Shown: positions 12,100 through 43,901 of the stretch, piece after piece
Layout of the letters: the number at the start of each line of letters is the position of its first letter
How positions within the stretch are numbered: the first letter of the stretch is position 1
IMG/VR virus record: IMGVR_UViG_3300029305_005988
Span: 59,096 to 123,095 of that record
Direction: 5' to 3' (one strand)
Length of the DNA: 64,000 nucleotides
From: a virus
Lineage: Duplodnaviria > Heunggongvirae > Uroviricota > Caudoviricetes
The notes under the pieces: model-generated
What the model was told of the DNA's origin: nothing
The model's input: only the letters and a program-made list of their open reading frames with translations
The model's database searches: none
Translations under genes and position numbers: made by a program

Positions 12100-12123
12100 T
12101 TCCGATACCTCCGATCCCTTATT

Positions 12124-12300
12124 TTAAACCTAAGACAATTTGCGCATAGCCTCTTGTAACTCAAGACTATCTTCAAATACATAATTATCAAAATAAGGCT
12201 TCTTCTCGTCAGGTACCACTCTAATAATCTTAAATCCCAACTTGCGCAATTCATACGCCATTTTTCGAGTGTAAATCACTCTTTCATTCATTTGATCCAT
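12124..12300 (-). CDS. hypothetical small protein (~58 aa); TAG-GTT-TAA at 3' end
   Basis: MDQMNERVIYTRKMAYELRKLGFKII...; starts overlapping previous TGA. Confidence 0.4.
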
Positions 12301-12484
12301 TTCCGTTTACGCGGCGCAAATAGTTCTCTAATTGCTACTTCACCCAAGCGGCAGGCGCATCCCTGTTGATAAACTTATAAAGCTAATCAGGATTATCTAA
12401 TTTTGCCTCTTGCGCAATCAACTTATAAGTATAACCTTTTACGCGCATCTCCTTTAACTAAAATATTATTTCTTCACGAGTCAT
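12288..12484 (-). CDS. small HTH protein (65 aa) with 3 in-frame TAG
   Basis: MTREEIIF*LKEMRVKGYTYKLIAQEAKLDNPD*LYKFINRDAPAAWVK*QLENYL...; RBS gaaaggagttagaaatg. Confidence 0.45.
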
Positions 12485-12509
12485 TTCTAACTCCTTTCAC
12501 TATTATATA

Positions 12510-12580
12510 AAAATTAAGGTAGTAATTGTATCTATTTTTGTCCAAATTTTTTACCATAATACTACCTTAATTTGCCAATT
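12510..12580. repeat. inverted repeat aaggtagta...tactacctt (9-bp arms)
   Basis: seen; possible operator/terminator between minus genes. Confidence 0.4.
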
Positions 12581-12745
12581 TTTCGACGATATGTTCTTTT
12601 CATGTTTTTTCTTATCTCGTCATCTTTAATTGATCTGCAACAATCTGTTGTTATTCCACCTTTTTTCAAAAGCAAATTCAATTAAAATCGTAACAAAATC
12701 GTGTTGGTTTGAAATGCGCCTAATCTTGCCCATTGGCGCCTTTTA

Positions 12746-13102
12746 TTAACAGCCATAAGTCTTCTTTATATCATGAGTAGCATATTCCAAATGGTCAGTC
12801 ATTGCGCGAATATTTGAAAGATCAAACTGTGTAACAACCTCATCTTCATTCTAATCTAATCGCCGCTCTAAAGCATTTACTCTATCCACTAACTTATCTA
12901 CATTAGCTTCAGCGCTAATTAATCTCCAAATCAAATCTCGTAAATCATAATCAGCATCTCCAATGTGAATGATAATAGTCTGCTCTCGAAGAATAGATCT
13001 TGGAAGACCACTTAACATCTCATAATCAATCACTTCTTGTTCACATGTAATATCAACAGGCTAAGACATAAAAATCTCTTTATCAAAACTATCTATCATC
13101 AT
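12746..13102 (-). CDS. hypothetical protein with 2 in-frame TAG (ORF 12851-13033 extended both ways)
   Basis: MMIDSFDKEIFMS*PVDITCEQEVIDYEMLSGL...RRLD*NEDEVVTQF...; ATGA overlap with upstream gene. Confidence 0.4.
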
Positions 13103-13515
13103 TCTACCTCTCTTTTATAGTGTAGTGTTTTAAGCGCCGATCGTAGCTCAGAGCATTCTTTTTTAGGCACAAAATTCTTCTTAAGGTCATTGATTTGCGC
13201 ATCTATCCTCTTAATTTCTGTAATAAGGCTATCAGTTATATTTTCAATAGCATAGTCATTAGCCTTAATAACTCCACTACAATACAAATTACCGCTATTC
13301 GCACTAGCTATTCCATAAGCGGTGTTGCTTCCTTCAGTTGCTAAATCAAAAGTACAATCAACCTCCGTCGCAGAGTCCGCGCTGAGACTTAAACTGCAAT
13401 CTTTAATATATCCCTTCATTACCTCATCACCGTTTGCACTATAACAAGCAACCGAGTAGGGTCTATTAAAACTATCTCCAAACCATGCTTCATTTGTTTT
13501 CTACCAAATAGCCAT
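13099..13515 (-). CDS. hypothetical protein (138 aa) with TAG at codon 5; C-terminal LKTLHYKREVE motif
   Basis: MAIW*KTNEAWF... joins ORF 13099-13419; C-terminus shared with 32256-32477. Confidence 0.5.
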
Positions 13516-13516
13516 T

Positions 13517-13994
13517 ATTTACCTCCACTCTTTTCGCTACAAATTCCAATATTTATCATATAATCCAATAACCCCAACTGTTTTATAATGGTGCGCTCGG
13601 CGCCTTCAGGCAGCTTGTGGTCAAAAAATAATTTAATTTCATAGTTATCTCTTTCAAATGGCGACAATGCTTCAACTTCTCCCTGCTCATAATCAATAAC
13701 TAAAAGCTAATCTCCATTATCGAAACAGGTAATCACTTTTCCATCTAATTGAAGCGCACTTTTTATTCCAATTTCAGCTTTAGCATGTGCCTCTATATCC
13801 ATTTGCGCAAGGTCTTGAATATATTTACTGCCTTTTGCGCCAATCATAATGTATTTAGTTGGAGTATATGGTGTAAAATCTATGCTTTCTTTCTCGCAAA
13901 GCCGCTATAGGCGCCGATTCTTCACTATTAGTCGCCCATAGTCAAACCCAATATATGTCAATATCAAAAATAAAAACAATCCCGTCCAGAACAT
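13517..13994 (-). CDS. membrane-anchored hypothetical protein (~159 aa) with 2 in-frame TAG
   Basis: MFWTGLFLFLILTYIGF... hydrophobic N-terminus; RBS aaaaggagaagcagatg. Confidence 0.4.
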
Positions 13995-14109
13995 CTGCTT
14001 CTCCTTTTATCTCTTTAATCTTTTATACACTTTAATTATACAATAAAATTAAAATAAAGTCAAGTGTTCCTTCCCATCAGCACCTTTTCAATTACCTTTT
14101 ATTTTCTAA

Positions 14110-18850: not shown

Positions 18851-18925
18851 GCGGGATTAACTCAGCGGAAGAGTAATCGCCTTCTAAGCGATAAGCCAAA
18901 GGTTCGAATCCTTTATCCCGTGCCA
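18851..18925 (+). tRNA. tRNA-Arg(TCT)
   Basis: cloverleaf by eye: stem atcgc/gcgat, loop cttctaa; T-loop ggttcgaatcc; CCA encoded. Confidence 0.6.
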
Positions 18926-19024
18926 GCATCCCAGAACTAGCCTTAATATATTATGCGACTTGCGATAATAAAGTCTGACATAATATATGCTGTCAGAGGC
19001 GGCAGCGGTTCTGGGGTAACATCT

Positions 19025-19100
19025 GCGCCCCTAGCTCAGACGGAAGAGCGGCTGACTCTTAATCAGTAGGTCCAGGGTTCGAATCCCTGGGGGCGCACCA
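19025..19100 (+). tRNA. tRNA-Lys(CTT)
   Basis: loop ctcttaa; T-arm caggg/ttcgaat/ccctg; CCA. Confidence 0.6.
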
Positions 19101-19411
19101 GAGGGAGACCTCAAGGGAATGATTCCGATGCCCGCTTAGCAGCGAAAAAAGGCGTGTTACCGTACTCGATAACAAACGGGGTTTTGCAATGGGTATTTGC
19201 TCCTTATAAACAACCCATAGGGAAGTCGTGGTCCCTAAAGGCTAGCTGGCTAACCACAACTCAAGAAAGTTCCACGCTTGGCTTGGCGGCAAAAGGTGGC
19301 GGTATGTATGGTTACCGAAAAAGTATCATATAGGGCGATAGAGGGACTGAAGCCTCTATAGTGGAGTTCAAGCCTCACTGTACAAGGTTTAGCCAACCAG
19401 CTTGAATTTAT

Positions 19412-19485
19412 ACTGGATTAGTTTAGCGGAAGAACGGGGCGCTACGGACGCTCAGACAAGGGTTCAACTCCTTTATCCAGTGCCA
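19412..19485 (+). tRNA. tRNA-Arg(ACG)
   Basis: loop ctacgga; acceptor actggat/atccagt; CCA. Confidence 0.6.
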
Positions 19486-19558
19486 TACACAACCGACGGA
19501 CAAGGCTTTGGCGCATGAAACAAGGCGGTGGGATGCGAGTGGTTAGGTTGTGTAATTT

Positions 19559-19635
19559 GGGCCACTAGCTCAGTTGGTCAGAGCATCCGGCTCATAACCG
19601 GACGGTCCAAGGTTCAAGTCCTTGGTGGCCCACCA
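19559..19635 (+). tRNA. tRNA-Met(CAT) elongator-type (or Ile-lysidine)
   Basis: loop ctcataa; G1-C72; CCA. Confidence 0.6.
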
Positions 19636-19666
19636 ATACATATAAAAATCAAAAGGAGAGAAGATA

Positions 19667-19816
19667 ATGAAGCCACTTGAAATTAAAGAGTCTAAAGAGC
19701 GAAGAAAAGAGCGGGTCCGTAACTCGGCTTCTCTCCGCACAAGAGTCGTTGAAAGTAAGAAGAAATATAATCGCAAGCGTCAAAAGGCGCGCGACCGTCG
19801 CTCTATGGAGGATTGA
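19667..19816 (+). CDS. very basic 49-aa protein (bS21-like?)
   Basis: MKPLEIKESKERRKERVRNSASLRTRVVESKKKYNRKRQKARDRR; RBS aaaaggagagaagataatg. Confidence 0.35.
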   Translation: MKPLEIKESKERRKERVRNSASLRTRVVESKKKYNRKRQKARDRRSMED

Positions 19817-19817
19817 A

Positions 19818-20096
19818 ATGACTTATTATCACGGCACTTCTGATATATTTGAAATGGGTACTTATATACTACCCGCCTCTTGCACTCATGTTTTACGAGA
19901 AGATTGGCGTAAAAAAGATTTAGATATAGTATTTTCTACTATCTCTTATAAATCAGCTTATATGTATGCCAAGAAGGCAGTTGAAAAGTATGGAGGTGCG
20001 CCAGTGGTATATCGCATTATTCCTCTTGGTAATGTACATTATCGTGGCGGTATAGAATACGGTTCTAATATTGCAGTTATAGTTGCTAAAGAGTAA
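19818..20096 (+). CDS. Arr-like mono-ADP-ribosyltransferase mini-protein (92 aa)
   Basis: MTYYHGTSDIFEMGTY... and VVYRIIPLG resemble Arr YHGT / YIVEPTG motifs (from memory). Confidence 0.35.
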   Translation: MTYYHGTSDIFEMGTYILPASCTHVLREDWRKKDLDIVFSTISYKSAYMYAKKAVEKYGGAPVVYRIIPLGNVHYRGGIEYGSNIAVIVAKE

Positions 20097-20171
20097 AAAT
20101 TTTTTCATTTTTAATTAAATCATTAAAAGTAATTTTAATATAAAAATACCCCACTCAGAAAGGAGAAGCTT

Positions 20172-20417
20172 ATGGGATACAAAAGAAGTCAAGAACAAAG
20201 AAGGCGAGATGAGCGCACCTATTCTGAAACTAAAACTTGGTATGGTAAAGGGGTATGGTATGATAAAGAAAAAGGCATTTATCGTAGATATTCATTACCT
20301 GAGCGTACGCGTTTTGTAAAGCGTAAATGTAACCGCGCAGTTCGTCGATATAAAGGAGATTTAACTACTAAAGGAGCGTATCGTAAAGTTTCTGAGTATT
20401 GGTGGGAAATCTGGTAA
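20172..20417 (+). CDS. basic Arg/Lys-rich protein (81 aa)
   Basis: ORF+RBS aaaggagaagcttatg. Confidence 0.4.
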   Translation: MGYKRSQEQRRRDERTYSETKTWYGKGVWYDKEKGIYRRYSLPERTRFVKRKCNRAVRRYKGDLTTKGAYRKVSEYWWEIW

Positions 20418-20425
20418 TTCATATA

Positions 20426-20498
20426 GGGAATTAGTTTAACAGTAGAATGACTGTCTCCAAAACAGTAGGCTGCGGGGCAGCACCGTAATTCCCTGCCA
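20426..20498 (+). ncRNA. degenerate tRNA-like (Trp CCA-type anticodon arm, no canonical T-arm)
   Basis: acceptor gggaatt/aattccc 7/7, stem actgt/acagt, loop ctccaaa; T-region replaced by ctgcggggcag. Confidence 0.3.
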
Positions 20499-20603
20499 GT
20501 TCCTTTAAAGATCTTCATAGTGACCATCGGCGCATTTATTGATTTTATAAAAAAATTATGATATAATAAATTGTAAAATGAAAGAGGGAAAGAGAGGGAA
20601 AAA

Positions 20604-20822
20604 ATGAAAGCACAAATTCGACTTGATACCATGTCTGATGTACATCGCTTTGTTAATATTGCAACAAAGCAAAAGGGTAGTGTCTATATCACTGATGACA
20701 ATGGTTTAAAGGTTAGCGCCAAATCATTGCTCGGTGCGCTTTATGCTCTTGAGTTTGATGAACTCTGGTGTGAAGCAGAAAATGATATTTATACTGCTAT
20801 TGCTGATTTCGTTATTCTTTAA
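20604..20822 (+). CDS. HPr-like phosphocarrier domain protein (72 aa)
   Basis: DVHRF (His15-like) and NGLKVSAKSLLGALYALEF vs HPr GLHTRPA / NGKSASAKSLFKLQTLG. Confidence 0.55.
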   Translation: MKAQIRLDTMSDVHRFVNIATKQKGSVYITDDNGLKVSAKSLLGALYALEFDELWCEAENDIYTAIADFVIL

Positions 20823-20889
20823 TTGACTTTTCTAAAAAATTATGTTATAATAAAGTACAAAATAAAACAAACCGCAAAGGAGAAAAGTT

Positions 20890-21024
20890 ATGCAAGCTGT
20901 ATGGTATCTTGATGATGAAAATATGAAGCACGTGACTGTCGTGCGTGATCCTGCTGAGTTAATCTTTCTTAAAGAGCGATTTGATTTTGTCGGTACTCTT
21001 GAAGATTTTATGGTAAAAGCATAA
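20890..21024 (+). CDS. hypothetical small protein (44 aa)
   Basis: promoter + RBS aaaggagaaaagttatg. Confidence 0.3.
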   Translation: MQAVWYLDDENMKHVTVVRDPAELIFLKERFDFVGTLEDFMVKA

Positions 21025-21412
21025 AAACTTCATTGATTTTTAATAAAAATTATGATATAATATATGTGTAAGATAAAGGAAACGGGAGTTGTCAGTCCCC
21101 ATAAGCGCCTTTCTTTCGCGCAACTGACTTGGATATGCGGCTGATGGTTCATGAGCCTAAAGCTGTACTTCCTCAGTGAGAGGCGTTTTTTGAGAGTTTT
21201 AGCCGAGATTAAAATTCTACCTTGAGAGTTTTGGAGAAACTCTTCGTTTCAGACAAAAGAGGTATCAATCACTTAGAGTCTTTGTTCGTATAAGTTAAAA
21301 AACATGATAGATTGGTCGCGGCGAGAGTGGCGAGCCTTATGCGGTGTAACGAGCAGAAGCGCAAGAAGATCTTCGCGCCTTGGGAGGGCGGTTATAATAC
21401 TCCCTTTATGGG

Positions 21413-21486
21413 ACCTTAGCTCAGATGGTAGAGCACTTCTTTGATGGCGAAGGTGGCAACGGTTCGAGTCCGTTAAGTTCCTCATA
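21413..21486 (+). tRNA. tRNA-Ile(GAT)-like with imperfect stems (possible pseudo-tRNA)
   Basis: T-arm aacgg/ttcgagt/ccgtt; loop ttgatgg with 31:39 mismatch; acceptor 6/7. Confidence 0.3.
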
Positions 21487-21698
21487 TGTGTAGGTTCACG
21501 ATAACCCTTAATTAGTGAAAATCGTTTAAATGAAGTCGCGCCCGTTGATGGAGTGGCGGACGCGGTTATTAATGAGTATGATGACGCAGACGATTTACCC
21601 TTGGTAGTTGCGTGGAAGGTTGATAAAAGGGCGGTTAGGGAGTAATCCGAGTGAAAACACCACGCTACTTGATGGGCGTTGAATGCATCAAGGTCGAC

Positions 21699-21774
21699 GG
21701 GGGTATAGTTTAAATGGTCAGAACGGGAGCCCTTCAAGCTTCAGATGTGGGTCCGATTCCCGCTATCCCTACCA
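21699..21774 (+). tRNA. tRNA-Glu(TTC)
   Basis: loop ccttcaa; T-arm gtggg/tccgatt/cccgc; CCA. Confidence 0.5.
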
Positions 21775-21861
21775 TAGCGCTTAGGTAAGGCGCTATATAA
21801 ATCTTCTACATTGTCCGTGAGTGACGGGGGTTGGTTTGTCAGCAATATAATCATTTATTAT

Positions 21862-21936
21862 GGAGCTTTAGTTAAGTGGTCAAAACGGGGCGTTCTCAGC
21901 GCTCAGGCGAGGGTTCAATTCCCCCAAGCTTCACCA
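21862..21936 (+). tRNA. tRNA-Glu(CTC)
   Basis: loop ttctcag; acceptor ggagctt/aagcttc; CCA. Confidence 0.5.
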
Positions 21937-22745
21937 TGTTAATGCCGCCCATCAACTAATAAGAGCGCCGATGGGGAAGAGTTAATCTTTTAAGGTTGCG
22001 CCACTCCTGTCCGAGTGGGAGTATAAATAAAAATCTGGCGCACAGTGCCAACTTGGCTGTGCTTAATGGGAAGTTGGGATAAGGTTTCGAGGGTACCGTA
22101 AACCCTCACTTACATAAACTTGTCGACATTCTGCAAAATGTTCGAGTACAAGGGTAGCGTAAATTCCGTCGAGATTTGTTGCAGCATTGCAAAACGGGTC
22201 GGCGCCCAAGGGTAAGTAGCAAGTTGTCTTACCCCATATGATATGGCGGATGGGCATAGTGTTCACCAGAGCCTCATAAGCTCAGGTTGCTCGGGGCAGT
22301 ACCGAGATCCGCATCCACTATACCTAAAATAAAAAAGAGGTTCCTTGGGGAAGAAGCAGGGACCCAGTATCTCCACCTCGAGAATCTGATAAGGGCAGGC
22401 ATCTCAGTTGCGAGACTGAGCGGTAGATAATTACCGTCTTGAGCAGAAAAAATTATACTCTGTTATTGGAGAAAATTGCAATAACTATGCACCTGAATTG
22501 GAATGCCCCATTACAGCTCATGGGTGACTTGGTAGCGCGGAGGCGATGACGCAAAGTCTTCGAAAGAACAAGGGAAAGCTCAACCCAATGCGCCATATGC
22601 CAGAAGGGTCGGCGCCCATCGACGCCTCATACGCGTTGAGCGCTTGGATCGACACCAAGTTTTGGCACCATAAATCCGAGAGGGGCGGCGATGGAAGTTC
22701 TGTCGGCTCGGCTTGTCTGCGCGCACAGGCGCCCCCATTATATAC

Positions 22746-22833
22746 GCAGATCTGGCGAAGAGGTAAACGCACTCGTTATAGGGACGGGTTATATACTCCA
22801 TTATCGTGGGTTCGAATCCCACGATCTGCTCCA
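22746..22833 (+). tRNA. class II tRNA, anticodon TAG (Leu), A33 in loop tataggg
   Basis: acceptor gcagatc/gatctgc, stem ctcgt/acggg, 17-nt variable arm, T-arm gtggg/ttcgaat/cccac, CCA. Confidence 0.45.
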
Positions 22834-22897
22834 CCTCCGAGAGCAAATGTGGGAGGTTAAATGGATATGCAGTTGACTGACTTAAAGTCGCTTTTAT

Positions 22898-22983
22898 CGG
22901 CGGGTGAGCGGAATTGGTAACGCAGCGGACTGTAACTCCGTGGCTCTAGGGCATTGTTGGTTCAAGTCCAACCTCGCCGACCA
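22898..22983 (+). tRNA. tRNA-Tyr(GTA), class II
   Basis: loop ctgtaac; 14-nt variable; T-arm gttgg/ttcaagt/ccaac; CCA. Confidence 0.55.
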
Positions 22984-23075
22984 TTTATCAATCACTATGA
23001 AACTTCTTTGATTTTTACAAAAAATTATGATATAATAAATATGTAAAATGAAAGAGAGGAAAAAAAGAAAAATAT

Positions 23076-23201
23076 GGAGTGGTAGCCCAACAGGCAGAGG
23101 CAATGGACTTGTCTGATGTTCGGTAACCTAGACTGGGTCAGCACCAGTATCAGGCACCAAAAATCCATCAAGTGAGGGTTCGAATCCCTCTCACTCTACC
23201 A
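23076..23201 (+). ncRNA. 126-nt tRNA-like gene with 55-nt insertion in anticodon loop
   Basis: acceptor ggagtgg/tcactct, D-arm gccc..ggc, anticodon stem atgga/tccat enclosing 55 nt, T-arm gaggg/ttcgaat/ccctc, CCA; own upstream promoter. Confidence 0.4.
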
Positions 23202-23356
23202 ATTACATATTAAGGTACGGGAATAAAGCGGCCCCGCTAAGTAAGAGCAGCTTAGAGCGAATGCCTTGATGAAAAGAATATTCTTTATATTAGGTGCCTA
23301 CTCGGGGAATACAGGTGGTAGGATAAATGTGACGACCCAGCCAGCCTAATATTTAT

Positions 23357-23449
23357 AGTGGGGTAAGCCTAATTGGTAAGGCAGTAGGTTGCTAACCTAC
23401 TAGTAATCGAGTAATCGGTGTGTGAGTTCAAGTCTCACCCTCGCTGCCA
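23357..23449 (+). tRNA. tRNA-Ser(GCT), class II
   Basis: stem gtagg/cctac loop ttgctaa; long variable arm; acceptor agtgggg/cctcgct; G73; CCA. Confidence 0.55.
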
Positions 23450-23621
23450 GCTGTCGTTGATACGGCGACATAAAAGGTGAAACTCCCTTTAGGCAGAAGC
23501 GTATTGGTGGACTATCCACAATCGGAGGTAGCGTTCGTGCACAGCGAATAGTGCAATCGTAGCGGTCTTTAAAGGCGCCATATGGGACTGCGTCTGGTAC
23601 GAAAACCCAGACCTTTGAAAT

Positions 23622-23713
23622 GGGAGATTAACCCTAAAGGCAAGGGACTAGTCCTGAAAACTAGTAGTAGCGAGTCAAATCGTGTGTGGTTTCGAGATCC
23701 ACATCTCCCTCCA
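23622..23713 (+). tRNA. tRNA-Ser(TGA), class II
   Basis: acceptor gggagat/atctccc; stem ctagt/actag loop cctgaaa; long variable arm; CCA. Confidence 0.5.
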
Positions 23714-23864
23714 CTTACCCGTGAGTAGTGGGGCTCTCGGCATCGCCAGTAAATAGCTACTCAAACTCCCAACGGTAGAGCAAATGACCAGAACTAGGAG
23801 TTAAAATAAACGAGACTAAGGATGTGCGGCTGACAACCTACTGTCATTACATATGCGAGTTTAG

Positions 23865-23939
23865 TTCAGAAGTAGAATACCGCTCTGATAAAGCGGGGGT
23901 GCTTGGGGCAGTACCAAGAATTCGCACCAAAACTCAAGA
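23865..23939 (+). tRNA. tRNA-Ile(GAT) with non-canonical T-loop ggcagta
   Basis: stem ccgct/agcgg loop ctgataa; acceptor gcgagtt/aattcgc; CCA. Confidence 0.55.
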
Positions 23940-24324
23940 GATAAAAGGAAGATGTAGGTTCGAGCCCTGCCCGCGCCGTCTTTAATTTGCGCGGTAGTGT
24001 GAAGTGGTTTAACACATCCGAAGCGCACCTTTTGAGTTTGTTGTAAGGAGTCATGACCTTACCGTGACATTGGTTAGCTACCGTCGATTAGCCATGAGCG
24101 CGAAAATGCTCTAAAAAAGTAGCAAACGGTAACTCATTACCGTGAATATTTGATAACCTTTAGGAACTGTAGGTTTAACTCAGTGCTAAAGACGAAGCGC
24201 AGTGCACGGCGCAAATGAGAGGATTGTCAGTTGTCTTATCTAACTACCTAAACTGAATAGTCAAGGGATACGAAGATCCCTCCCCGTAGCTGTTCGCGGG
24301 AGTGAGATTGTGAGCAGCATCTAT

Positions 24325-24402
24325 GGGGGACTAGCTCCAATTGGCTAGAGCACGACACCTGCAATGTCGGGGTTATGGGTTCGAATCCCATGTCCTCCAC
24401 CA
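24325..24402 (+). tRNA. tRNA-Ala(TGC)
   Basis: G3:U70 present; loop cctgcaa; T-arm atggg/ttcgaat/cccat; CCA. Confidence 0.65.
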
Positions 24403-24500
24403 GCTGGCTCAAGATAGATAGGCGTAATTAACCTATTGACAAGAACAGCTCCTTCTTCTTGAGTCTAAAATTTTGAGGAGCTATAAAGGAGTTTATAAAA

Positions 24501-25265
24501 ATGACATCAGGAATTTATATGTATTAGAACAAGGTTAATGGACAGTGCTATATTGGATAGGCAATAGACCTTGCACGGAGAAAAAAAGACCATAAAACAA
24601 GAGCCTTTAATGAATTTGAGGGTAATAATGAGTATAATTCAGTAATACATTAGGCTTTTAGAAAATATGGTTATGATAATTTTGAATATTCAGTATTAGA
24701 AGAATGTGAAATATCTTTGCTTAATGAAAGAGAACGATATTGGATTGCTTATTATAATTCTTATAAAGTTGGATATAATTGTGATGAAGGTGGCAATACT
24801 GCAAGACATTTTTGTAAATTTAATGCAGATATATTATAGGCATTAAAAAATGATTTACAAGAAACAAAAGATACCTATGAAATATTAGCAGCTCGATATG
24901 GAGTGTCCATTGGATATGTAAGCGATATTAATAATGGAAAAATATGGCATCAAGATGGTGTAATTTATCCATTACGGAAAAAGCAGTCTAAAAGTATTCA
25001 ATATTGTTCTTTATGTGGAGTTGAGATTTCTGGAGAAGGACAGACGGGCTTATGTGTTGCCTGTGCAAATGCAAGATATAGAAAAGTAGAACGTCCAACT
25101 CGAGAAGAACTAAAATATCTTATTAGAAATTTTACTTTTGTAGAAATTGGTAAGCAATTTGGAGTTGCAGATAACACTATTAAAAAATGGTGTAAAGCAA
25201 TGAATTTACCTTCTCGTAAAAAAGATATTAATTTATATTCAAACATAGAGTGGGAAGCTCTTTAA
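24501..25265 (+). CDS. GIY-YIG homing endonuclease with C-terminal HTH/Zn module; 4 in-frame TAG (24525, 24558, 24651, 24837)
   Basis: MTSGIYMY*NKVNGQCYIG*AIDLARR...; paralog 45405 has Q where this has TAG (FHQAIRKYG vs IH*AFRKYG); ORF 24903-25265 is its tail. Confidence 0.7.
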
Positions 25266-25280
25266 CTTTCCACCAAGATA

Positions 25281-25358
25281 TGGAGTCGTTAGTTCAGTAG
25301 GTTAGAACGCCAGATTGTGAGTCTGGATGTCGTCAGTTCGAGTCTGACACCTCTCCCC
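25281..25358 (+). tRNA. tRNA-His(GTG) (extra 5' G; 2 acceptor mismatches)
   Basis: stem ccaga/tctgg loop ttgtgag; T-arm gtcag/ttcgagt/ctgac; CCA. Confidence 0.45.
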
Positions 25359-25529
25359 ATAAAAACTGAGTCCATCTGATGCGGCACCAGCGCTCAGGAA
25401 AGTAGGATGGATAAAAAGCATTAGCCCAGACATCTGCGGGAAAGCGCTCCTGACAAGTACCGACCGAAAGCGAAATGCGGGATAAGTGAACAGCACCTTA
25501 TCATTTACATAATAACAAAGGAGCAATAT

Positions 25530-25703
25530 ATGAAAAAATCAATCGGTCTTGAATGCCCTCATTGTGGTTATCAGTGGACAACTAAATATTGGATTTGGAT
25601 TTTGAAGGCGCCGATGCACTGGTTTAAATTTCGTGATTGGCGTGATTACAGATATACTAAGTGCCCGAGCTGTGGAAAACGAGGCTGGGTTAAATATTCT
25701 TAA
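25530..25703 (+). CDS. zinc-ribbon small protein (57 aa)
   Basis: CPHCG...CPSCG; RBS aaaggagcaatatatg. Confidence 0.4.
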   Translation: MKKSIGLECPHCGYQWTTKYWIWILKAPMHWFKFRDWRDYRYTKCPSCGKRGWVKYS

Positions 25704-25705
25704 TT

Positions 25706-25770
25706 GATTTTTAATAAAAATTTTGTTATAATATATATACAAAATGAGAAATGAAAAAAGAAAACATTTG
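25706..25770 (+). promoter_or_regulatory. AT-rich-class promoter driving tRNA-Asp leader
   Basis: ttgatttttaataaaaattttgttataat. Confidence 0.5.
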
Positions 25771-25895
25771 GTGACTGGATTTAGCGGTAAGACCTGTTCA
25801 GATAAACGCGTATCAACAGGCGCAAGTTAATCAGTCTTAAATCAGGAAACTTTCCTTTGGGCGCGAATTGCCCATCTGAGCCAGTCCTTTGCTAC

Positions 25896-25970
25896 GGCGG
25901 TATAGTTCAGCGGTGGAGCGCCTGACTGTCTATCAGGATGTCGAGGGTTCGAATCCCTCTACCGTCGCCA
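25896..25970 (+). tRNA. tRNA-Asp(GTC)
   Basis: stem cctga/tcagg loop ctgtcta; T-arm gaggg/ttcgaat/ccctc; CCA. Confidence 0.6.
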
Positions 25971-26199
25971 AAGTCTAATTTGTTAGTTATCCGAGACTTT
26001 AAACCTAAACTGACAAAAGGCGATTATCAACGCCGCACGCGAGCCTTTGAAAGATAAGTAGTGAAAAGCTGGAGTACTACAGTCTGATACGAATCGTATG
26101 TCATCGTGAGCCAACGGCATACTGCGGGACCTTGCCCGTATAAAACCAAGGAGGGTCAGAAGTGGAGTGAGCTACCGAGTATAAACGCTCACGATTTAT

Positions 26200-26275
26200 G
26201 CTGTGATAATTCAATTGGGAGAAGAGCCGGCGTCAAGCAGGCTAGTTGTGGGTTCGAGTCCCACTCACAGGTCCA
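26200..26275 (+). tRNA. tRNA with UCA-centred anticodon loop (cgTCAag, G33) - opal-reading/Sec-like candidate or mis-parse
   Basis: acceptor 6/7 (G1-G72 mismatch); T-arm gtggg/ttcgagt/cccac; CCA; anticodon stem gccgg/caggc with one mismatch. Confidence 0.3.
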
Positions 26276-27009
26276 GAGGTGCCAATGCCTAATCATTGGT
26301 CAGGAGTCTAACCTGTGCGGTATTACGCAGAGCGACCGGGGTCCCGCATCCGTGAGCAACGGGAAAAATAATAGGTGCCACGAAGCCAATAACTAGGGAG
26401 TGAATATTACTTGATGTAATTAGCCCATTCGATAAAATCCTAGGTACGAATGAGATACAGCTCTGTGAGGCGATAAAATGCAGTGGTAAATGGAGTTTGA
26501 TGAACAGCCTATTCCACCCCGCTCTAAGGGTGAGTACTCGAGGTCTGGAGCAACGAGTAAATAAATAAATAAAGTCCCCAGAGTCGTTTTGCGGTGTCGG
26601 AGAAAACCGCCATAGAGCGCAAGTGTTGTGGGTCGAGCGGGCTTAGAGCAATGGCCCAATTAGGTAAGGACAAGGTTCATGGAAATGCGCGGAAGTGACA
26701 AAAACCCTCAGTTTTCCTTGTTTTCACAAAACAAGGTGGGCTCAAGTTGGGCATCTACTGTGACCTCTGGGAGGAGTCCCCTTCGATCCTCCACCTATTC
26801 AACAGAGTGAGTAGAGAGCGAAGTCGCAAACGCTATATAAAAAGACGAGTAATAGTGTTGAGTCTTAAGACACAGGCAGCGGTGGGCCAAATATCCGCTG
26901 GAGTTTCGCCTCCAAGATGAAGTGCGAGATTTATGATGTAAGTCGTGATTAGCTCTGAAGTGGACGCTTATTTAAGCAGCTTCGGTCTACGGCGCGGGTC
27001 CAGCTTTCC

Positions 27010-27085
27010 GCATCCAAGAGCTGGAATTTCGGGGTGTAGCCTAGTTGGTTAGGCGCTTGCTTTGGGAGCAAGATCACGCGGGTTC
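27010..27085 (+). tRNA. tRNA-Pro(TGG)
   Basis: stem cttgc/gcaag loop tttggga; D-stem gcct/aggc; CCA. Confidence 0.6.
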
Positions 27086-27260
27086 GAGTCCTGTCACTCC
27101 GTCCAATATTTACACCCTAAAGATTCTTAGGGCAACAATCGGCGCCAATCCATCTCCCAGCAGTTGGATAATACGCGCAAGAACTTTATGGAGTTCGGAG
27201 AGTCTTTCTCTTGCTGGGTATAAAAACTCTCCTCCTCTTTTTCCATTAAGAGATACATAT

Positions 27261-27347
27261 GCGTTTGTGGTGTAATTGGCAGCCACGCAGCGTTGAGGTC
27301 GCTGTGCTCGAAAGAGCGTGTAGGTTCGACTCCTATCAGACGCACCA
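27261..27347 (+). tRNA. tRNA-Leu(GAG), class II
   Basis: stem cagcg/cgctg loop ttgaggt; variable arm gctcgaaagagc; A73; CCA. Confidence 0.6.
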
Positions 27348-27389
27348 TTGTTTGCAGCGTAGCAAAGAAAAACCTGCTGCAGAGAGCTA

Positions 27390-27440
27390 TCATCTAACCA
27401 CCATTAGATGATAGTAGCCTCCAAGTTTTTAATTGATTTT
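27390..27440 (+). terminator. long hairpin terminator (gctatcatctaa..ttagatgatagc + gttttt)
   Basis: seen. Confidence 0.55.
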
Positions 27441-27582
27441 ATTAAAAATTTATGATATAATAATATTGTAATAATGAGAAAGGAAATAAAAATAAAAAGA
27501 AATGAGAAATGTAAAGCGAAAATTTAGAGCCTTGGAGAATTAATCCATCTAAGGTATTTAAAACATAGATGGGTTTTAATAT

Positions 27583-27656
27583 GAGCCCGTCATATAATGG
27601 TAGTATTTGCGACTTTTAATCGCACCGTCGGAGTTCGACTCTCCGCGGGCTCACCA
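27583..27656 (+). tRNA. tRNA-Lys(TTT)
   Basis: acceptor gagcccg/cgggctc; loop cttttaa; T-arm cggag/ttcgact/ctccg; CCA; own promoter. Confidence 0.65.
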
Positions 27657-27812
27657 TAAAGAATTTAATTGATTTCTTAAAAAATTTATGATATAATAAA
27701 TATGTAAGATAAAGGCGATGCAATATAAGTAGCGAGAAACAAAGACACTCGCCGCTTCCATCAACAAATTCTCGATTCAAAATTGCTCGAAAGAGGTCGC
27801 TAATCGTAATAT

Positions 27813-27888
27813 TGGGTCTTCGCCTAAACGGTTAGGGCACAGGACTTTGACTCCTGCAGTCTAGGTTCGAATCCTAGAGACCCAGCCA
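27813..27888 (+). tRNA. tRNA-Gln(TTG)
   Basis: U1:A72, G73, tc-gcc D-arm (Gln-like); stem cagga/tcctg loop ctttgac; CCA. Confidence 0.6.
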
Positions 27889-27923
27889 AATATTGGAGGT
27901 TAGCCTAGTGGTCAGGCAGTCGG

Positions 27924-28392
27924 CTGTTTTAACTGACTTTAATCTTTAATGAAAAAAGATAGTGAACAGTAAGCAAATTGGCAATATTACCGAAGTATCT
28001 GTTATGCTTGAGTTTTTAAAATTAGGATATAATATTTTAACTCCTTATGGAGATTGCGAACGATATGATTTTGTTGCAGATATTAATCATAAATTTTATA
28101 AAATTCAAGTAAAAACAGCAAAAAAAGATAATGGTAAAATCGAATTTAATACAGCATCCACTCATTATGTAGATGGAAAATGTATTCATGACTCTTATAC
28201 AAAAGATGAAATTGATTACATTGCAACTTATTTTAATAATAAGTGTTATTTAATTCCAATTGAGGAATGTGGAAAGCGCTCTGCTTCAATTCGTTTTGAA
28301 GCTCCTAAAAATGGACAAACCAGAGGAGTTCGAATGGCAGAAGATTATGAGTTGGAGGAAGTAATTAAAAGATTAAACTGATGTTAAAGCAA
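27924..28392 (+). mobile_element. intervening element in tRNA anticodon loop (group I intron-like or novel) encoding PD-(D/E)XK-like nuclease
   Basis: only ~40 nt 5' and ~11 nt 3' of non-ORF sequence, too little for a canonical group I core. Confidence 0.4.
27962..28381 (+). CDS. putative PD-(D/E)XK-fold homing endonuclease (139 aa), paralog of 30291-30905
   Basis: GDCERYDFVADIN...KIQVK motif block conserved with paralog (GEDCRYDMIVDIN...RVQVK); lies inside split tRNA. Confidence 0.45.
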   Translation: MNSKQIGNITEVSVMLEFLKLGYNILTPYGDCERYDFVADINHKFYKIQVKTAKKDNGKIEFNTASTHYVDGKCIHDSYTKDEIDYIATYFNNKCYLIPIEECGKRSASIRFEAPKNGQTRGVRMAEDYELEEVIKRLN

Positions 28393-28653
28393 CCGACCTA
28401 CGGGAGTTCAATCCTCTCACTTCCAGCCAGTCGATTATCGACAAAAACCGTTATCATGAATTTGGCAGTTAAACTACCACCGACTCTAACAATTAGCACC
28501 CAGTATGCGGTCAAGTATTGAATATGAGGTATGTGGCTTAGTGGGAAACGGTATATCAAAGACGCAAAGTAAACTGCCGCTTGGATGATTTTTTCATGGT
28601 TTTCCTCCCTTCAACGGGTTTGGGCATTACCGTTAAAACAATGCCTTTAGAAT

Positions 28654-28730
28654 GTCAGTCTAGCCCAATTGGCAGAGGCACTAGTCTTAGGAACTAGTTA
28701 GTGTGGGTTCGACTCCCTCGATTGACACCA
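28654..28730 (+). tRNA. class I (short variable arm) tRNA with anticodon TAG (Leu codon CUA) - atypical
   Basis: stem ctagt/actag loop cttagga; acceptor gtcagtc/gattgac; T-arm ~gtggg/ttcgact/ccctc; CCA. Confidence 0.45.
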
Positions 28731-29419
28731 TGGATGCTACTTCCAAGCCGTAAGGTGAATGTAGCGGTTTTTACGATGAGGTTTTGACGGTTTTTCCAAG
28801 AGTCGTAATCCCCATAATATAATTATTAAAATAAATCGGCAACTCTTGGGTGTTGATGTACAAGTAGCACCATCAACCTCTCCTATGCGTTCCGTATATA
28901 AAGACTCGGAAGAGGTAACAGAGCGTAGGTGACTATACGGTATCAAGAGGCGGAATCCGTACGCGCGACGAGGCATGATGCGAAAAATCAAAAAGGTGGC
29001 AGCCTGCTCGAGAATATATGGTATTATAAATTTAATCGGTATCAATGTGGAAAGACACTGCCAAAGGTTGACAACCATTATGAGTTGTTGAAACAGAGAT
29101 ACTCGATATAAGTAAATAATCTTGATTACATTAAGTAGTTTGAGGCGATTACTACTGTGAAATGCAGAGTAGGCTTGAGAGAGCGCTCACGAACAAGAAT
29201 TGAAATCAAATGCTGAGAAGATCGTGGATTTCGTCCATCCGAAGCACAGAGTAGGATGCGATTAGCGACGAGGATGTGGTGAGGTTCTGGTAGACCAACC
29301 AATGGTGTCTAAGTCAGATGTAGATTGAAAGATGTAACGGTTATTTACTCGAATTGTGGAAGGTAGCAAATACCCGATGCCCAAAAGAAGAAGATATGCG
29401 GTTAGCTGACCTAAAGCTT

Positions 29420-29460
29420 CACCTCTTTATTGACAAAATAAAAAATTTTTGTTATAATAA
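29420..29460 (+). promoter_or_regulatory. promoter of GIY-YIG HEG (ttgacaaaataaaaaatttttgttataat)
   Basis: seen. Confidence 0.5.
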
Positions 29461-29539
29461 ATAAGTAATCGAAAGTTCATTGATAATTGCATAAGAAAAT
29501 ATATAAGACATCTATAAAAGAAGGAGTTGAATTTATTAT

Positions 29540-30176
29540 GGGTTTTATTTATAAAGTTACAAATAAAGTCAATGGTAAAGTTTATATTGGAAAAACTTTA
29601 GACTCTTCTATAGAGGAGCGCTTTAAAGAACATATTAAAGAAGCTAAAGTAAAACAATATAATCGACCTTTTCATCTGGCTTTAAATAAGTATGGAGCAG
29701 AAAATTTCATAATTGAAGAAATTGAGCAAATTCCTGCAAATGAATTAAGCAAAAGAGAAATATATTGGATTTCTTTTTATCATTCTTATATTCACGATCC
29801 AGTTTCAAACGGATATAATGCCACTAAAGGTGGCGAAGGATCGCTAGAATATGACTATGATAAAGTTATTGTAGAGTATCATAAAACACAAAGTATTACT
29901 CAAACAGCCAATAATTTAAAATGTTCTATATCTACAGTACAGAGAGCTATTCGAGAATATAATGTTCCCGTATATAAACAGCGCGCCTGTGGAGTTAAAA
30001 TTATTGGCTATAATGATATGGAAGAATTAACTTTTGATTCTATCCGACAAGCTGCTGAATTTTTATCAAAACGATTAAATAAAGATATGCAGACAATACG
30101 AAAGCGAATTACTTCTATTATTAATCATAAACCTAATCAAAAAGGGTATGGTTATTACTGGAAAGAACAAGAATAA
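29540..30176 (+). CDS. GIY-YIG homing endonuclease (no in-frame TAG)
   Basis: MGFIYKVTNKVNGKVYIGKT...ERFKEH...YWISFYHS...GYNATKGG; ORF track 29487-30176. Confidence 0.7.
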
Positions 30177-30228
30177 CTATATTTTCTTATGCAATTAAGT
30201 TGAACTTTTTAATATGCACCTGTCGCAT

Positions 30229-30919
30229 AGTGGCCGATTGCACTCGCCTTGTTCGTAAATTTAAGACTTCCTATAAAGGAGGTTGATATAATGAATGAGA
30301 CAAAGATTAAAGGTTTAACCACTGAGCTTCAATGTCAATTATTCTTTACTCAATTGGGTTATAATGTTAGTATCCCGTTAGGAGAAGATTGTAGATATGA
30401 TATGATAGTAGATATTAATGGCATACTCTTGCGAGTTCAAGTAAAACACGCAACTGTTGCAGAAAATGGTATTACTATTTCTACTCGTTCTACTCAATCT
30501 AACACTTCAGGATCAAAAAGTTTAACCTATAATAAGGAACAAATTGATTATTTTGCAACTTTTTATAATAACCAGTGTTATTTAATTAAAGTTGAAGAAT
30601 GTTCAACTCAAAAAACTTTAGCTTTTACTAAAATTCAACAAATGCAGAACTTCATTGATGATTTTTTGGCTGAAAAAGAAATTCAAAGAATCTTAAATGG
30701 GGAAGATGCTATAGAAGATACTGTAATAGCAAATGTATATCAATATGATTTGCGTGGCAACTTAATAGGAGCCTATTCAAGTGCCGTTGCAGCAGCTGAA
30801 AGTTTAGGAGATCGCTCTAAAAATTCTCATATTACCAAATGCCTTAATGGGCATAGGCAAACAGCATATGGGTATAAATGGAGCAGGACACTATTGAAGT
30901 CTTAAACATTATGATCAAA
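30229..30919 (+). mobile_element. intervening element in tRNA anticodon loop encoding nuclease ORF
   Basis: no G at predicted 3' splice position, so a group I assignment is doubtful. Confidence 0.35.
30291..30905 (+). CDS. putative PD-(D/E)XK-fold homing endonuclease with C-terminal DNA-binding tail (GYKW), paralog of 27962-28381
   Basis: conserved block with paralog; RBS ataaaggaggttgatataatg. Confidence 0.45.
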   Translation: MNETKIKGLTTELQCQLFFTQLGYNVSIPLGEDCRYDMIVDINGILLRVQVKHATVAENGITISTRSTQSNTSGSKSLTYNKEQIDYFATFYNNQCYLIKVEECSTQKTLAFTKIQQMQNFIDDFLAEKEIQRILNGEDAIEDTVIANVYQYDLRGNLIGAYSSAVAAAESLGDRSKNSHITKCLNGHRQTAYGYKWSRTLLKS

Positions 30920-31505
30920 GCGAGAGACCTTGTCCGCGTTGGTTCGAATCCAACTAGGTGCTCCATGGCGTCAAGAAGAAAACCTGCGCGTGGTGACGCT
31001 GCACGCTCTTACCCAGTGGCTAATTTCTTCATGCATCACCTCCTTTCGATGCAAAAAGGCGGCGCACGCCTGTAAGTCCCCAAGCTATCTTGGCTAAAGT
31101 GTTGCGGGGAGCATACCCTGACAAACCTCTGTGGCTGGGTTATAAGCTCGGAAAATAGACACTTCTCCATTTAGTGAGAAACCGTTAGTGTCACTAAGCG
31201 AGGGTGGCGGGAAAAACCTTCGCTTCTTCCCATTTAAACTTGATATACGACAGGTGAAGTCGATAAAACTGCCTTGGTAGGGTAGCGCCCTACGGAAGAG
31301 ACGATAGAGCGCAAGAGGGCGTCCCAAGATTATCAAGTACAATTTATATTAGCTTAAGAGAGCCTTTGTCCCAAACACAGCGCTCCGTCAAAAGAAACCG
31401 TTTAGCACGGACTCGCAAGAGATAGTACTCGGTAGGGTTGGGAAAAGCGTGGATACAATTAGCTACTCCACGGGAAATTTCAATTGACAATCTTAAGCGC
31501 CTTCT

Positions 31506-31580
31506 GCAGGTGTCGTATAATGGCTATTACCTCTGCCTTCCAAGCAGATGATGGGAGTTCGATTCTCCCTACTTGCTCCA
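31506..31580 (+). tRNA. tRNA-Gly(TCC)
   Basis: stem tctgc/gcaga loop cttccaa; T-arm gggag/ttcgatt/ctccc; CCA. Confidence 0.6.
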
Positions 31581-31657
31581 GCCCTTTGGGCGACATTTTT
31601 CTACCCTTCCTTTCTGCTTTACCGCGCGCTGTTCGTTGGCGCGCGGTAATTGAACAT
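31581..31657 (+). promoter_or_regulatory. perfect 10-bp hairpin taccgcgcgc..gcgcgcggta between tRNAs (processing site?)
   Basis: seen. Confidence 0.35.
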
Positions 31658-31734
31658 GGTGATGTACCCGAGTGGACTAAGGGCGCGCTCTGCAAAAGCG
31701 TTGTGCGTTGATTCGAATTCAACCATCACCTCCA
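31658..31734 (+). tRNA. tRNA-Cys(GCA)
   Basis: acceptor ggtgatg/catcacc; stem gcgct/agcgt loop ctgcaaa; CCA. Confidence 0.6.
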
Positions 31735-31888: not shown

Positions 31889-32266
31889 ATGATAAGTTAT
31901 GATAAAGTCTGTACAATAGCAAAAGACTATGAAGCAGATATTCGTGAATTTAGATTAGATGGCGACCTTGGGCGCCTAATGGATTTCTTAGAGGCAGTGG
32001 TGGGCGCTGATCGGTTAATTTTAGTAGAAGATTTTTATAAAGCTCTAACAGATAATGAGAAAAAAGCATTTATAGCAATTAGAGAAACAATTGGCTTCTC
32101 TGGTAATATTTCAATTGTTAAAATGATACAAAAAACAAACCTTTCGCGCCCTGTTTGGACTTCACTGTTGGCGAAAATGGAAAAATTTGGAATTGCGCAA
32201 GTTAAAAGTCAAGGAGTAAAAGGAACTTATATTGAAATATCAAAGGAGATTAACAATGCCTTCTAA
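31889..32266 (+). CDS. winged-helix DNA-binding protein (125 aa)
   Basis: KTNLSRPVWTSLLAKMEKFGI HTH-like; promoter+RBS. Confidence 0.45.
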   Translation: MISYDKVCTIAKDYEADIREFRLDGDLGRLMDFLEAVVGADRLILVEDFYKALTDNEKKAFIAIRETIGFSGNISIVKMIQKTNLSRPVWTSLLAKMEKFGIAQVKSQGVKGTYIEISKEINNAF

Positions 32267-32477
32267 AGAAGAAACTTTAAAACAAGCTCAAGACGACATG
32301 ATAGAAGCAATGAGAAAAATTCAAAGGGCAGTTAGCTCTTATGGAATATCAATGCAAGAAGCTATGGGCGCCTTGGCGCAACTTTCAAAAACAGCAGAAG
32401 AAACCACTTTACTTCCAGGTGATGCTGAGCGTCGCGCCAAATATAAAACACTTAATTATAAACACGAAGTGGAATAA
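32256..32477 (+). CDS. small helical protein (73 aa) ending YKTLNYKHEVE
   Basis: RBS caaaggagattaacaatg; C-terminal 11 aa near-identical to 13099-13515 protein; directly upstream of MVP-like gene. Confidence 0.45.
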   Translation: MPSKEETLKQAQDDMIEAMRKIQRAVSSYGISMQEAMGALAQLSKTAEETTLLPGDAERRAKYKTLNYKHEVE

Positions 32478-42220: not shown

Positions 42221-42319
42221 TGGGGGGTCGCTTAATGGTCATAGCAGCGGTCTCTAAAACCGCCAGAGCCTACGGGTCTGCTCCGTAGTATGTGGGTTCG
42301 AGTCCCACCCCCCCAGCCA
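42221..42319 (+). tRNA. amber-suppressor tRNA(CUA), Gln-type identity, with 28-nt extra (variable) arm
   Basis: stem gcggt/accgc loop ctCTAaa; U1:A72, G73, tc-gct D-arm as in tRNA-Gln; variable arm ctacgg-gtctgct-ccgtag hairpin; T-arm gtggg/ttcgagt/cccac; CCA. Confidence 0.6.
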
Positions 42320-43049: not shown

Positions 43050-43901
43050 ATGACTTATACTCTAAAAAATGGTGAGACTATTGAATCTATACCAATTGGA
43101 CGTTCCTCTGTGATTATAGGAGAAAAAAGTCCAAGTGGAATGCTAACAGTTTGTGATCGAGGCCCTGCTCCTATTAGCGGGAGAGGCGCCACCGTAATCT
43201 GTCAATGCTAGTGCGGAAAATATACTCTTATTAAATTAAATGAGTTGCGAACAGGTAATACTAAATCTTGTGGTTGTTATGCACAAGAAAAAGCAAAAGA
43301 AAATGGTAAATATGTAGGCTCTTTACCTAAAAAAGCAAAAGATTATACACTTATAGATAATCCTTTTTATACTTTTATTCAAAGAACAGATAAAAAAGAT
43401 ATTTCAAATAGTTTCTTTTGGATAGTACAGTGTAAAAGATGCGGCAAACAATATGAAGAAGTGCCTTCTCAAATTATTTCTACCACTCGAGCACGAGGCA
43501 ATAATCCTTGTAGTTGTTGGAAACATTTAAGTAAAGGAGAGCAAAAGATCATAAATCTGCTTTTAAATAACAATATTTCCTTTTCACAACAAGTGACTTT
43601 TAAAGATTGCCTTTCTCCACTAGGGAACCCTTTAAAATTTGATTTTTTTATTGAACAAAAGTATTTAATTGAATTTGATGGTGAGTAGCATTTTTTACCT
43701 CAACAATTTGGAAATAACGAATCTGGAGAAGAAAAATTAAAGCTTACTCAAGAATACGATGCAATTAAAAACCAATGGTGTAAAAATAATGGAATTCCGC
43801 TAATAAGAATTCCTTATACTCATTACAGTCAATTAAATATTAAAGATTTATTATTAGAAACAAGTAATTTTATATTAAAGGAGAAAATAAATGCCGAATA
43901 A
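43050..43901 (+). CDS. Zn-finger + Vsr/DUF559-like (PD-(D/E)XK) endonuclease, HEG-like; 2 in-frame TAG (43209, 43686)
   Basis: RBS aaaaggagatgaataaaaatg; ...VICQC*CGKY...KFDFFIEQKYLIEFDGE*HFLPQQFGN...; ORF 43245-43688 is the middle segment. Confidence 0.5.

Follow-up and report, generated by a model that had tools for sequence, protein, structure and literature searches.

A conserved C-terminal peptide shared by two otherwise unrelated small proteins of an amber-recoded, MVP-encoding phage, and its possible role as a docking motif

Why would two small phage proteins with unrelated bodies finish in nearly the same ten residues? The question is raised by a 64,000-nucleotide stretch of the IMG/VR record IMGVR_UViG_3300029305_005988, hereafter called the window, and by two of its genes, which we labelled p73 and p138 (g27, g29, and g74 are likewise our labels for neighbouring genes). 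The p73 gene lies close to a gene for a major vault protein (MVP) homolog; an earlier note on this DNA had proposed that the common ending is either a cargo-loading peptide for the MVP-like shell or a shared interaction motif. In p73 and p138 the common ending is a strongly conserved peptide of 10-15 residues. We put the chances about even that it acts as a short linear docking motif, a tethered C-terminal helix for a common partner.

Both open reading frames (ORFs) and both endings were found where the earlier note had placed them (Table 1). An AGGAG was read in the sequence 9 nucleotides 5' of the p73 ATG. Directly before its stop codon p73 carries KYKTLNYKHEVE (in longer form ...RRAKYKTLNYKHEVE and ...GDAERRAKYKTLNYKHEVE), and p138 carries ALKTLHYKREVE (...RSALKTLHYKREVE and ...SELRSALKTLHYKREVE); the corresponding 16-mer tail peptides are ELRSALKTLHYKREVE and ERRAKYKTLNYKHEVE. 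The description of the two proteins as otherwise unrelated was correct, as hhalign comparison of the two family alignments paired only the last 19 columns (E 3.5e-6). The similarity was also said to be only moderate at the DNA level, and by our own reading of the codons 22/30 nucleotides are identical over the ten codons of the tail, with different codons for three of the eight identical residues.

Among about 6,100 pairs of C-terminal 10-mers from the 111 predicted proteins of the window, p73/p138 was the top pair, with a BLOSUM score of 41 and 8/10 identical residues; the second-best pair scored 29. Random position-matched internal 10-mers gave a null maximum of 21.0±3.4 and attained 41 in 0.05% of 2000 trials, and shuffled tails never attained this score. 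The probability of a chance match is thus ~5e-4 or lower. The pattern TL.YK.E has only two occurrences in the six-frame translation of the window. A systematic search of 1,335 ORFs from 52 loci (the window and 51 related loci) returned this tail as the sole clear C-terminal 10-mer common to non-homologous ORFs, and no third tail was seen in the extra 7 kb that sibling contigs add beyond the window ends.

The earlier note had named a common low-complexity ending as the outcome that would speak against its proposal. This was checked by scanning JGI metagenomes and 185,579 GTDB genomes, one per bacterial or archaeal species, with degenerate DNA patterns; the window's own contig was not among the sequences scanned, and the scans yielded zero relatives. 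The 49 loci listed were all chance matches, lying in non-coding frames or encoding unrelated residues. As none of them was a genuine ORF ending of this type, the motif is not a common ending. A full-text literature search with three tail sequences gave no match, and no relative of p73 or p138 was found among the GenBank phages of INPHARED.

The p138 protein belongs to a large family. When 1.84 billion representative proteins were searched with a profile, 114 clusters at 50% identity were recovered, and nearly all members have 90-150 residues and the same plan. The N-terminus carries a [WY]FGD[ST]F[ND]R motif, in some members after an AFYDAFGG extension. The middle is hypervariable; its stretches rich in Ala, Gly, and Ser (AYGIASANSG, for example) look reminiscent of tail-fibre or adhesin repeats. 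The C-terminal half consists of a coiled coil (..LQAQIDDLKK..), a short linker, and the terminal LRSALKTLxYKREVE. Window p138 has all three family marks, namely the N-terminal motif, the coiled coil, and the C-terminal LRxxLKTLxY[KT]RE[VI]E. The plan also survives in a 63-residue member (P0073), in which the middle is deleted and both termini and the coiled coil are kept.

The tail is the best-conserved segment of the p138 family. For 101 representatives of the 50% clusters, conservation was 3.1 bits/column over the last 15 columns, 2.7 over the first 20, and 1.5 in the middle. The K of KTL stands 9-10 residues from the C-terminus in 95 of the 101 representatives, and this fixed distance fits recognition of a free C-terminal peptide. 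Searches of Pfam, PHROG, and the PDB with the p138 family gave coiled-coil noise only and no PDB relative; the Pfam and PDB noise matches were trimeric coiled coils, fibres, and scaffolds. The family and its motif are new with respect to Pfam and PHROGs as searched, and the family is large and uncharacterised. A 40-column tail-weighted profile matched only short proteins and missed most p138-family members, so that it is uninformative on the tails of long proteins. In an AlphaFold2 model of P0012, a 70%-identical family member, residues 73-100 form a helix, followed by a loop and by a second predicted helix (107-123) that corresponds to the tail. The predicted local distance difference test score (pLDDT) averaged 91 in the 10-residue blocks of residues 81-100 and 70, 75, and 62 in the blocks of residues 101-124; the N-terminal half was unmodelled.

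The p73 side shows the same conservation of the ending. The KYKTLNYKHEVE ending is invariant in six close homologs of p73 (70-86% identical), and the last 12 residues are invariant across the p73 family. In P0075/L114 the p73-type core has drifted to ~30% identity and the last 12 residues are still 12/12 identical, which is the clearest sign of selection on the peptide. As the tail is near-invariant in both families while the remainder of the proteins diverges, the earlier proposal of selection at the peptide level stands.

By its relatives, p73 reads as an N-terminally truncated member of a tail-fibre-like family. The full-length p73-type orthologs L062 (L062/L063, IMG/VR; 141 residues) and P0142 (133 residues) have an Mtd_N/HylP-type N-terminus with the pattern ..NDTPxxWxxNNPILxKGEVGCAIDxxxGxxxxKIGDGVHxWxxLE.., and this module is present in the orthologs of L061, L062, L088, and P0142. 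The full-length protein matched phrog_19976 (E 2e-10), several tail-fibre PHROGs, and, below the cut-off, Pfam Mtd_N (E 0.004). No such module precedes p73 in the window, where an in-frame TAA lies 13 codons upstream and g74 overlaps the p73 start; L113 has the same truncated architecture. The p73 orthologs stay beside g74 in L061, L062/63, L088, L113, and L114. AlphaFold2 modelled P0142 with a low-confidence β N-terminus, a helical hairpin at residues 61-110 (block pLDDT 66-89), the LLPGD loop, and the tail as a possible short helix at 116-126, in blocks averaging ~50 pLDDT.

The distribution of the tail is modular. The p73-type orthologs of L061 and L088 have another, acidic/aromatic C-terminus, ..NPYLEDFEIPHY[DE]FED..IK.LIDF, and the genomes of both loci keep a tail-bearing p138 homolog (LRSALKTLQYKREVK in L107 and IRPALKTLKYQREVE in L106). 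Conversely, a p73-like variant of the tail, RR.KYKTLN..YEVLK, is found on some p138-type proteins (P0132, P0162). The tail is kept in the p138 family and in the six close p73 homologs, and it is absent from the p73-type orthologs of L061 and L088. The sequences suggest that the tail is exchangeable with other C-termini on the p73-type core, and the alternative tails suggest swapping of C-terminal adaptor peptides in this protein.

A docking motif would account for these observations in the following way. The tail would be an amphipathic, basic/aromatic helix of ~13-16 residues, [LY]-K-T-L-x-Y-K-[RH]-E-V-E-COOH, and a flexible Pro-containing linker would tether it to two different elongated proteins, coiled-coil or fibre-like. 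It would be ancestral to the p138 family and diagnostic of it, and the p73 family would have acquired it by exchange of the C-terminal module. Through the tail, p73 and p138 would dock at one binding site of a common partner. The tail is indeed set off from the helical body by a variable linker with Pro (VPKKxxx in p138, LLPGD in p73), and the presence of near-identical tails on unrelated bodies favours an external common partner over packing of the tail on its own body. Among the candidate partners, the g29 protein is the best by gene context; a virion component is possible, as both bearers are fibre-like; and the MVP-like protein is a minority option.

Several points weigh against a docking motif. 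There are at most two tail bearers per genome and one only in some relatives, which is few for a hub motif. A few members (P0074, L108/L109) have 4-5 residues beyond the motif, so the fixed distance to the free carboxylate is not absolute. The mean pLDDT of the two AlphaFold2 models was 59 and 61, and the picture of a tethered helix is correspondingly soft. Finally, part of the nucleotide conservation in the p138 family has other causes, namely a Shine-Dalgarno overlap and the S-A-L codons.

The last point bears on the rival view that the peptide has no function of its own and is a chance product or a by-product of nucleotide constraint, for instance a ribosome-binding site that overlaps it or the scar of a recombination event. 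In the p138 tail, R-E-V is encoded by AGA GAG GTA in the window (GTN for the last codon in the family), and these codons coincide with what looks like the Shine-Dalgarno sequence of the next gene downstream, which overlaps p138. For S-A-L of the tail, the family nearly always uses TCG GCG CTT (window 13102-13146 (-), L051, L053, and L106-L111), a GC-rich stretch within a 39% GC genome that is near-invariant at synonymous sites. A constraint on the nucleotides overlies the one on the peptide in part of the p138 tail. However, the p73 tail keeps the peptide with different codons (CAC GAA GTG GAA) and has no overlapping downstream gene, so nucleotide constraint cannot explain it. The invariance of the tail in p73 homologs with cores at ~30% identity and the chance probability given above also speak against this view, which is largely refuted already and which we regard as extremely improbable.

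A second rival places the function of the tail within the proteins themselves. It would be an intrinsic structural element that caps the C-terminus or folds back as a helix and so fixes the oligomer state or register of the coiled coil, in the manner of a mini 'foldon'. The segment just before the tail is helical or coiled-coil in p73 and p138 alike, the tail is amphipathic, and the noise matches to trimeric coiled coils, fibres, and scaffolds fit such a role. On the other hand, the bodies are unrelated and the tails nearly identical, orthologs of the p73 core work with a C-terminus of another kind altogether, and 10-13 residues behind a Pro-Gly linker are short for an autonomous oligomerisation unit. 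We therefore consider a structural cap unlikely, although it is the strongest competitor of the docking motif.

The tail could also be a regulatory C-terminal tag, such as a degron or a protease or chaperone signal, through which p73 and p138 would be turned over or processed alike. The short, conserved motif with its strictly C-terminal position fits this, and a Clp-type protease has been reported in related phages (PMC10607447). It does not resemble the bacterial C-terminal degrons familiar to us, which have ssrA-type non-polar ends, and a protease gene was not found in the window. A tag of this kind is very improbable in our estimate.

The MVP-like neighbour was the starting point of the cargo-peptide idea. 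Judged from its sequence, the 829-residue protein is a genuine MVP homolog: it matched MVP_shoulder (Table 1), and rat and human MVP aligned with it collinearly over the C-terminal half (E ~1e-17, residues 313-763 against 326-776). For the N-terminal vault repeats, Vault_3 reached 24.5 bits, under its cut-off of 28.8. Relatives of this MVP are encoded at 45 IMG/VR loci with 50-88% identity. Phage MVPs have already been reported for two phages, in which no PARP4 or TEP1 homologs were found (bioRxiv 10.1101/2023.11.10.566534); one of the two, ctOa11, is listed as a divergent relative of the phAss-1 group, which is TAG-recoded (PMC10607447). In the window p73 ends 83 nucleotides upstream of the MVP gene, which together with the resemblance of a tethered C-terminal peptide to encapsulin cargo-loading peptides, as we know these, could indicate that the tail docks p73 and p138 inside or onto the MVP-like shell. 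Moreover, all four IMG/VR genomes with a tail-bearing gene encode an MVP or share a sample with an MVP contig of the same phage type.

The relatives of the window do not bear out this linkage. The p73 ortholog follows g74 and is separated from MVP by three ORFs in L062, by ~1.6 kb in L088, and by 5.9 kb in L061, so the p73-MVP adjacency is peculiar to the window's sublineage and is not conserved. In the two phages with the closest MVP (88% and 84% identity), the p73 ortholog has the unrelated acidic/aromatic C-terminus. Among 21 IMG/VR contigs that encode MVP and are 120 kb or longer, only three had a detectable p138-family gene or tail, a count obtained with two peptide and two DNA patterns that could miss divergent p138 members. 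The sole MVP relatives in INPHARED are megaphages, and the MVP-encoding megaphages LR756500/501 have no p73 or p138 relative. MVP and p138 lie ~19 kb apart in the window; the three IMG/VR contigs that contain both genes have 18-24 kb between them. A search of the 45 loci to 10 kb from MVP turned up no further shared tail. Both bearers are small fibre-like or coiled-coil proteins without enzyme domains. In-frame TAGs are present in p138 and in the full-length p73-type orthologs (L062, L088), and none occurs in the 829 codons of MVP; if recoded stops mark late genes, as has been proposed (summarised in PMC10607447), this would hint at different expression classes. Window p73 itself has no TAG.

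Docking to the MVP-like shell is consequently improbable in our view, and of the two functions first suggested, a cargo peptide for the MVP shell found no support; the more general interaction motif is supported by a near-invariant tail, a Pro linker, and a fixed C-terminal distance. A bolder version would make the tail the address label of a phage-built vault-like compartment, docking p138 and p73-type proteins to the MVP-like shell, possibly at the membrane through g29. We consider this slightly less probable still. If it were true, a cargo or adaptor peptide of this short, natural kind would be without precedent for any MVP assembly, and it would give the first indication of what the MVP homologs of bacteria and viruses do. 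Directly downstream of MVP the window encodes, at 35083-36176 (+), an HNH homing endonuclease (HNH_3, E 3e-10) together with a pyrimidine-dimer DNA glycosylase (Pyr_excise, E 4.5e-25), a further sign that the MVP neighbourhood is a mosaic of unrelated accessory genes.

For a docking motif with a common partner, the gene context of p138 points elsewhere. A g29 homolog of 156-160 residues lies directly upstream of the p138 homolog in 9/9 independent loci inspected, and in all nine the two genes form a conserved pair with coupled translation. The g29 protein, membrane-anchored by its N-terminal features, is thus nominated by its gene context as a candidate receptor for the tail. The positions of g29 and of the other features discussed here are collected in Table 1.

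Table 1. Positions of the tail-bearing genes, their tails, and neighbouring features. Coordinates refer to the window unless another locus is named.
Feature	Coordinates	Strand	Description
p73	32256..32477	+	73-residue helical protein; ATG 32256, TAA 32475-32477; ends in shared tail
p138	13099..13515	-	138 residues (ORF 13515-13099, stop TGA); codon 5, an in-frame TAG (13503-13501), is read as sense
Shared tail of p73	32445..32474	+	KTLNYKHEVE, preceded by RRAKY and the LLPGD linker
Shared tail of p138	13102..13131	-	KTLHYKREVE
Alternative conserved tail	L061 3615-4127; L088 7758-8411		..KKNPYLEDFEIPHY[DE]FED..IK.LIDF; replaces KTLNYKHEVE
g74	31889..32266	+	125-residue helix-turn-helix protein; weak CodY-HTH match
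MVP-like protein	32561..35050	+	829 residues; Pfam MVP_shoulder PF11978, E 2.2e-24, 86 bits (cut-off 25)
g29	13515..13994	-	159 residues; N-terminal hydrophobic helix followed by KNRR; stop overlaps p138 start
g27	12746..13102	-	118-residue coiled-coil protein; start overlaps p138 stop (ATGA); poorly conserved between relatives
Amber-suppressor tRNA	42221..42319	+	anticodon loop CUCUAAA (CUA); Rfam tRNA 56.3 bits

The shared tail was compared with known systems in which an ending is the working part of a protein. Encapsulin cargo-loading peptides are similar in being short conserved peptides at the extreme C-terminus, attached by a flexible linker to unrelated proteins of one genetic system. 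The differences are several: no HK97-fold shell gene was seen among the scanned proteins of the window, which covers half of the genome; the tail motif departs from the Gly/Ser/Leu-rich consensus of encapsulin peptides; p73 and p138 are not enzymes or ferritin-like cargo; and MVP, the shell-like gene closest by, shows no conserved linkage to the tail, with which it lacks synteny in relatives. The natural vault cargo PARP4 (vPARP) is targeted by its C-terminal INT domain, a folded domain of ~160 residues. In PARP4 too a C-terminal element directs the protein to an MVP shell, but the region shared here has 10-19 residues, and the tail bearers have no INT-like sequence or Pfam match.

Closer parallels are the C-terminal tip of the single-stranded DNA-binding protein SSB and the clamp-binding tails of T4 gp43, gp33, and gp55. 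There, as here, unrelated proteins of one genome share a short tail that is conserved above the adjoining linker, and in the known systems this tail binds one common partner. Unlike those acidic-hydrophobic endings, the present tail is basic/aromatic and amphipathic, and its fibre-like or coiled-coil bearers lie outside a replication module. The p73-type proteins may also be compared with Mtd_N/HylP-type tail-fibre proteins, as L062, L061, L088, and P0142 begin with the module and match tail-fibre PHROGs. Window p73 has lost the module, however, and the p73-type proteins have only 73-218 residues, are encoded outside a recognisable structural cluster, and have a swappable short tail in place of a receptor-binding domain.

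The results define a widespread family of small phage proteins that lacks any annotation and comprises more than 100 clusters at 50% identity. Its most conserved feature is a free C-terminal peptide, which has been transplanted onto a tail-fibre-like protein. Such a transplantable tail is a handle for finding the partner, and with it part of the biology of a phage clade that is uncultured, amber-recoded, and MVP-encoding could come to light. Should the MVP homolog prove to be the partner, direct tests of what MVPs do in prokaryotes and viruses would come within reach; on present evidence this is unlikely.

Standard gene callers truncate some members of the p138 family owing to in-frame TAGs, and p138 itself is a case in point. 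The earlier note had treated 13099-13515 as one protein, a right reading that needs the correction that it passes an in-frame TAG. Standard ORF calling gave only 106 residues from an internal ATG, and the gene is stored as a 106-residue protein. All 64 first-round homologs cover 72-100% of the 138-residue query, N-terminus included; KKTNEAWFGDSFNR, whose codons lie downstream of the TAG, is conserved in them, and the residue that corresponds to the TAG is K, Q, or E. Other TAG-bearing genes of the window lie at 8116-14000 (-) and at 24501-25265, 43050-43901, and 52733-53926 (+), with 1-4 TAGs per gene, and their homologs also run continuous across the TAGs. The whole minus-strand block at 9.6-14 kb carries in-frame TAGs, with TGA and TAA terminating the genes, and a doubtful ORF at 8116-9213 (-) has six. 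No in-frame TAG was found in the MVP, gyrase, ligase, helicase, and primase genes of the window.

A tRNA with a CUA anticodon is encoded in the window. ARAGORN read it with an odd 4-base anticodon 'taaa'; read by hand, it is a cloverleaf with the anticodon stem GCGGT/ACCGC, a long variable arm (type II), and a G at the discriminator position. It looks Ser-like by these features; Gln has been reported for related phages (PMC10607447). Translation of p138 and of the other genes with in-frame TAGs requires this suppressor tRNA. The continuity of the homologs across the TAG, the other TAG-bearing genes, and the CUA tRNA together establish p138 as a real 138-residue protein of an amber-recoded phage.

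ARAGORN also called a 'tRNA-SeC' at 26200-26275 (+) with the anticodon TCA, which would read TGA; the Rfam tRNA model did not report it at the gathering threshold. It may be false or degenerate, and TGA acts as a stop in the genes inspected. The region at 18851-31734 (+), between the p138 block and the g74-p73-MVP region, holds 22 of the 24 ARAGORN tRNA calls, with small ORFs and GIY-YIG/HNH-type endonuclease genes interspersed.

The next-best tail pair of the window (score 29) ends in GFNF. It consists of a helix-turn-helix protein of 237 residues, sigma-region-4-like, at 11386-12099 (-), ending in ..KKKIAGFNF, and an unannotated protein of 321 residues at 55542-56507 (+), just upstream of an AAA_24 gene, ending in ..KAKAGGFNF. 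Identification of the 321-residue protein as an SSB was rejected, as no family match supported it, and no g24 ortholog ending in the GFNF motif was seen in the other loci scanned. The GFNF ending may be a replication or transcription hub motif. A similar ending is found on a p138 homolog of L108/L109 (3001-3381), which terminates in ..LRSLLRTLHYNSEVESGANF, a KTL-type tail with five extra residues that resemble the GFNF tail.

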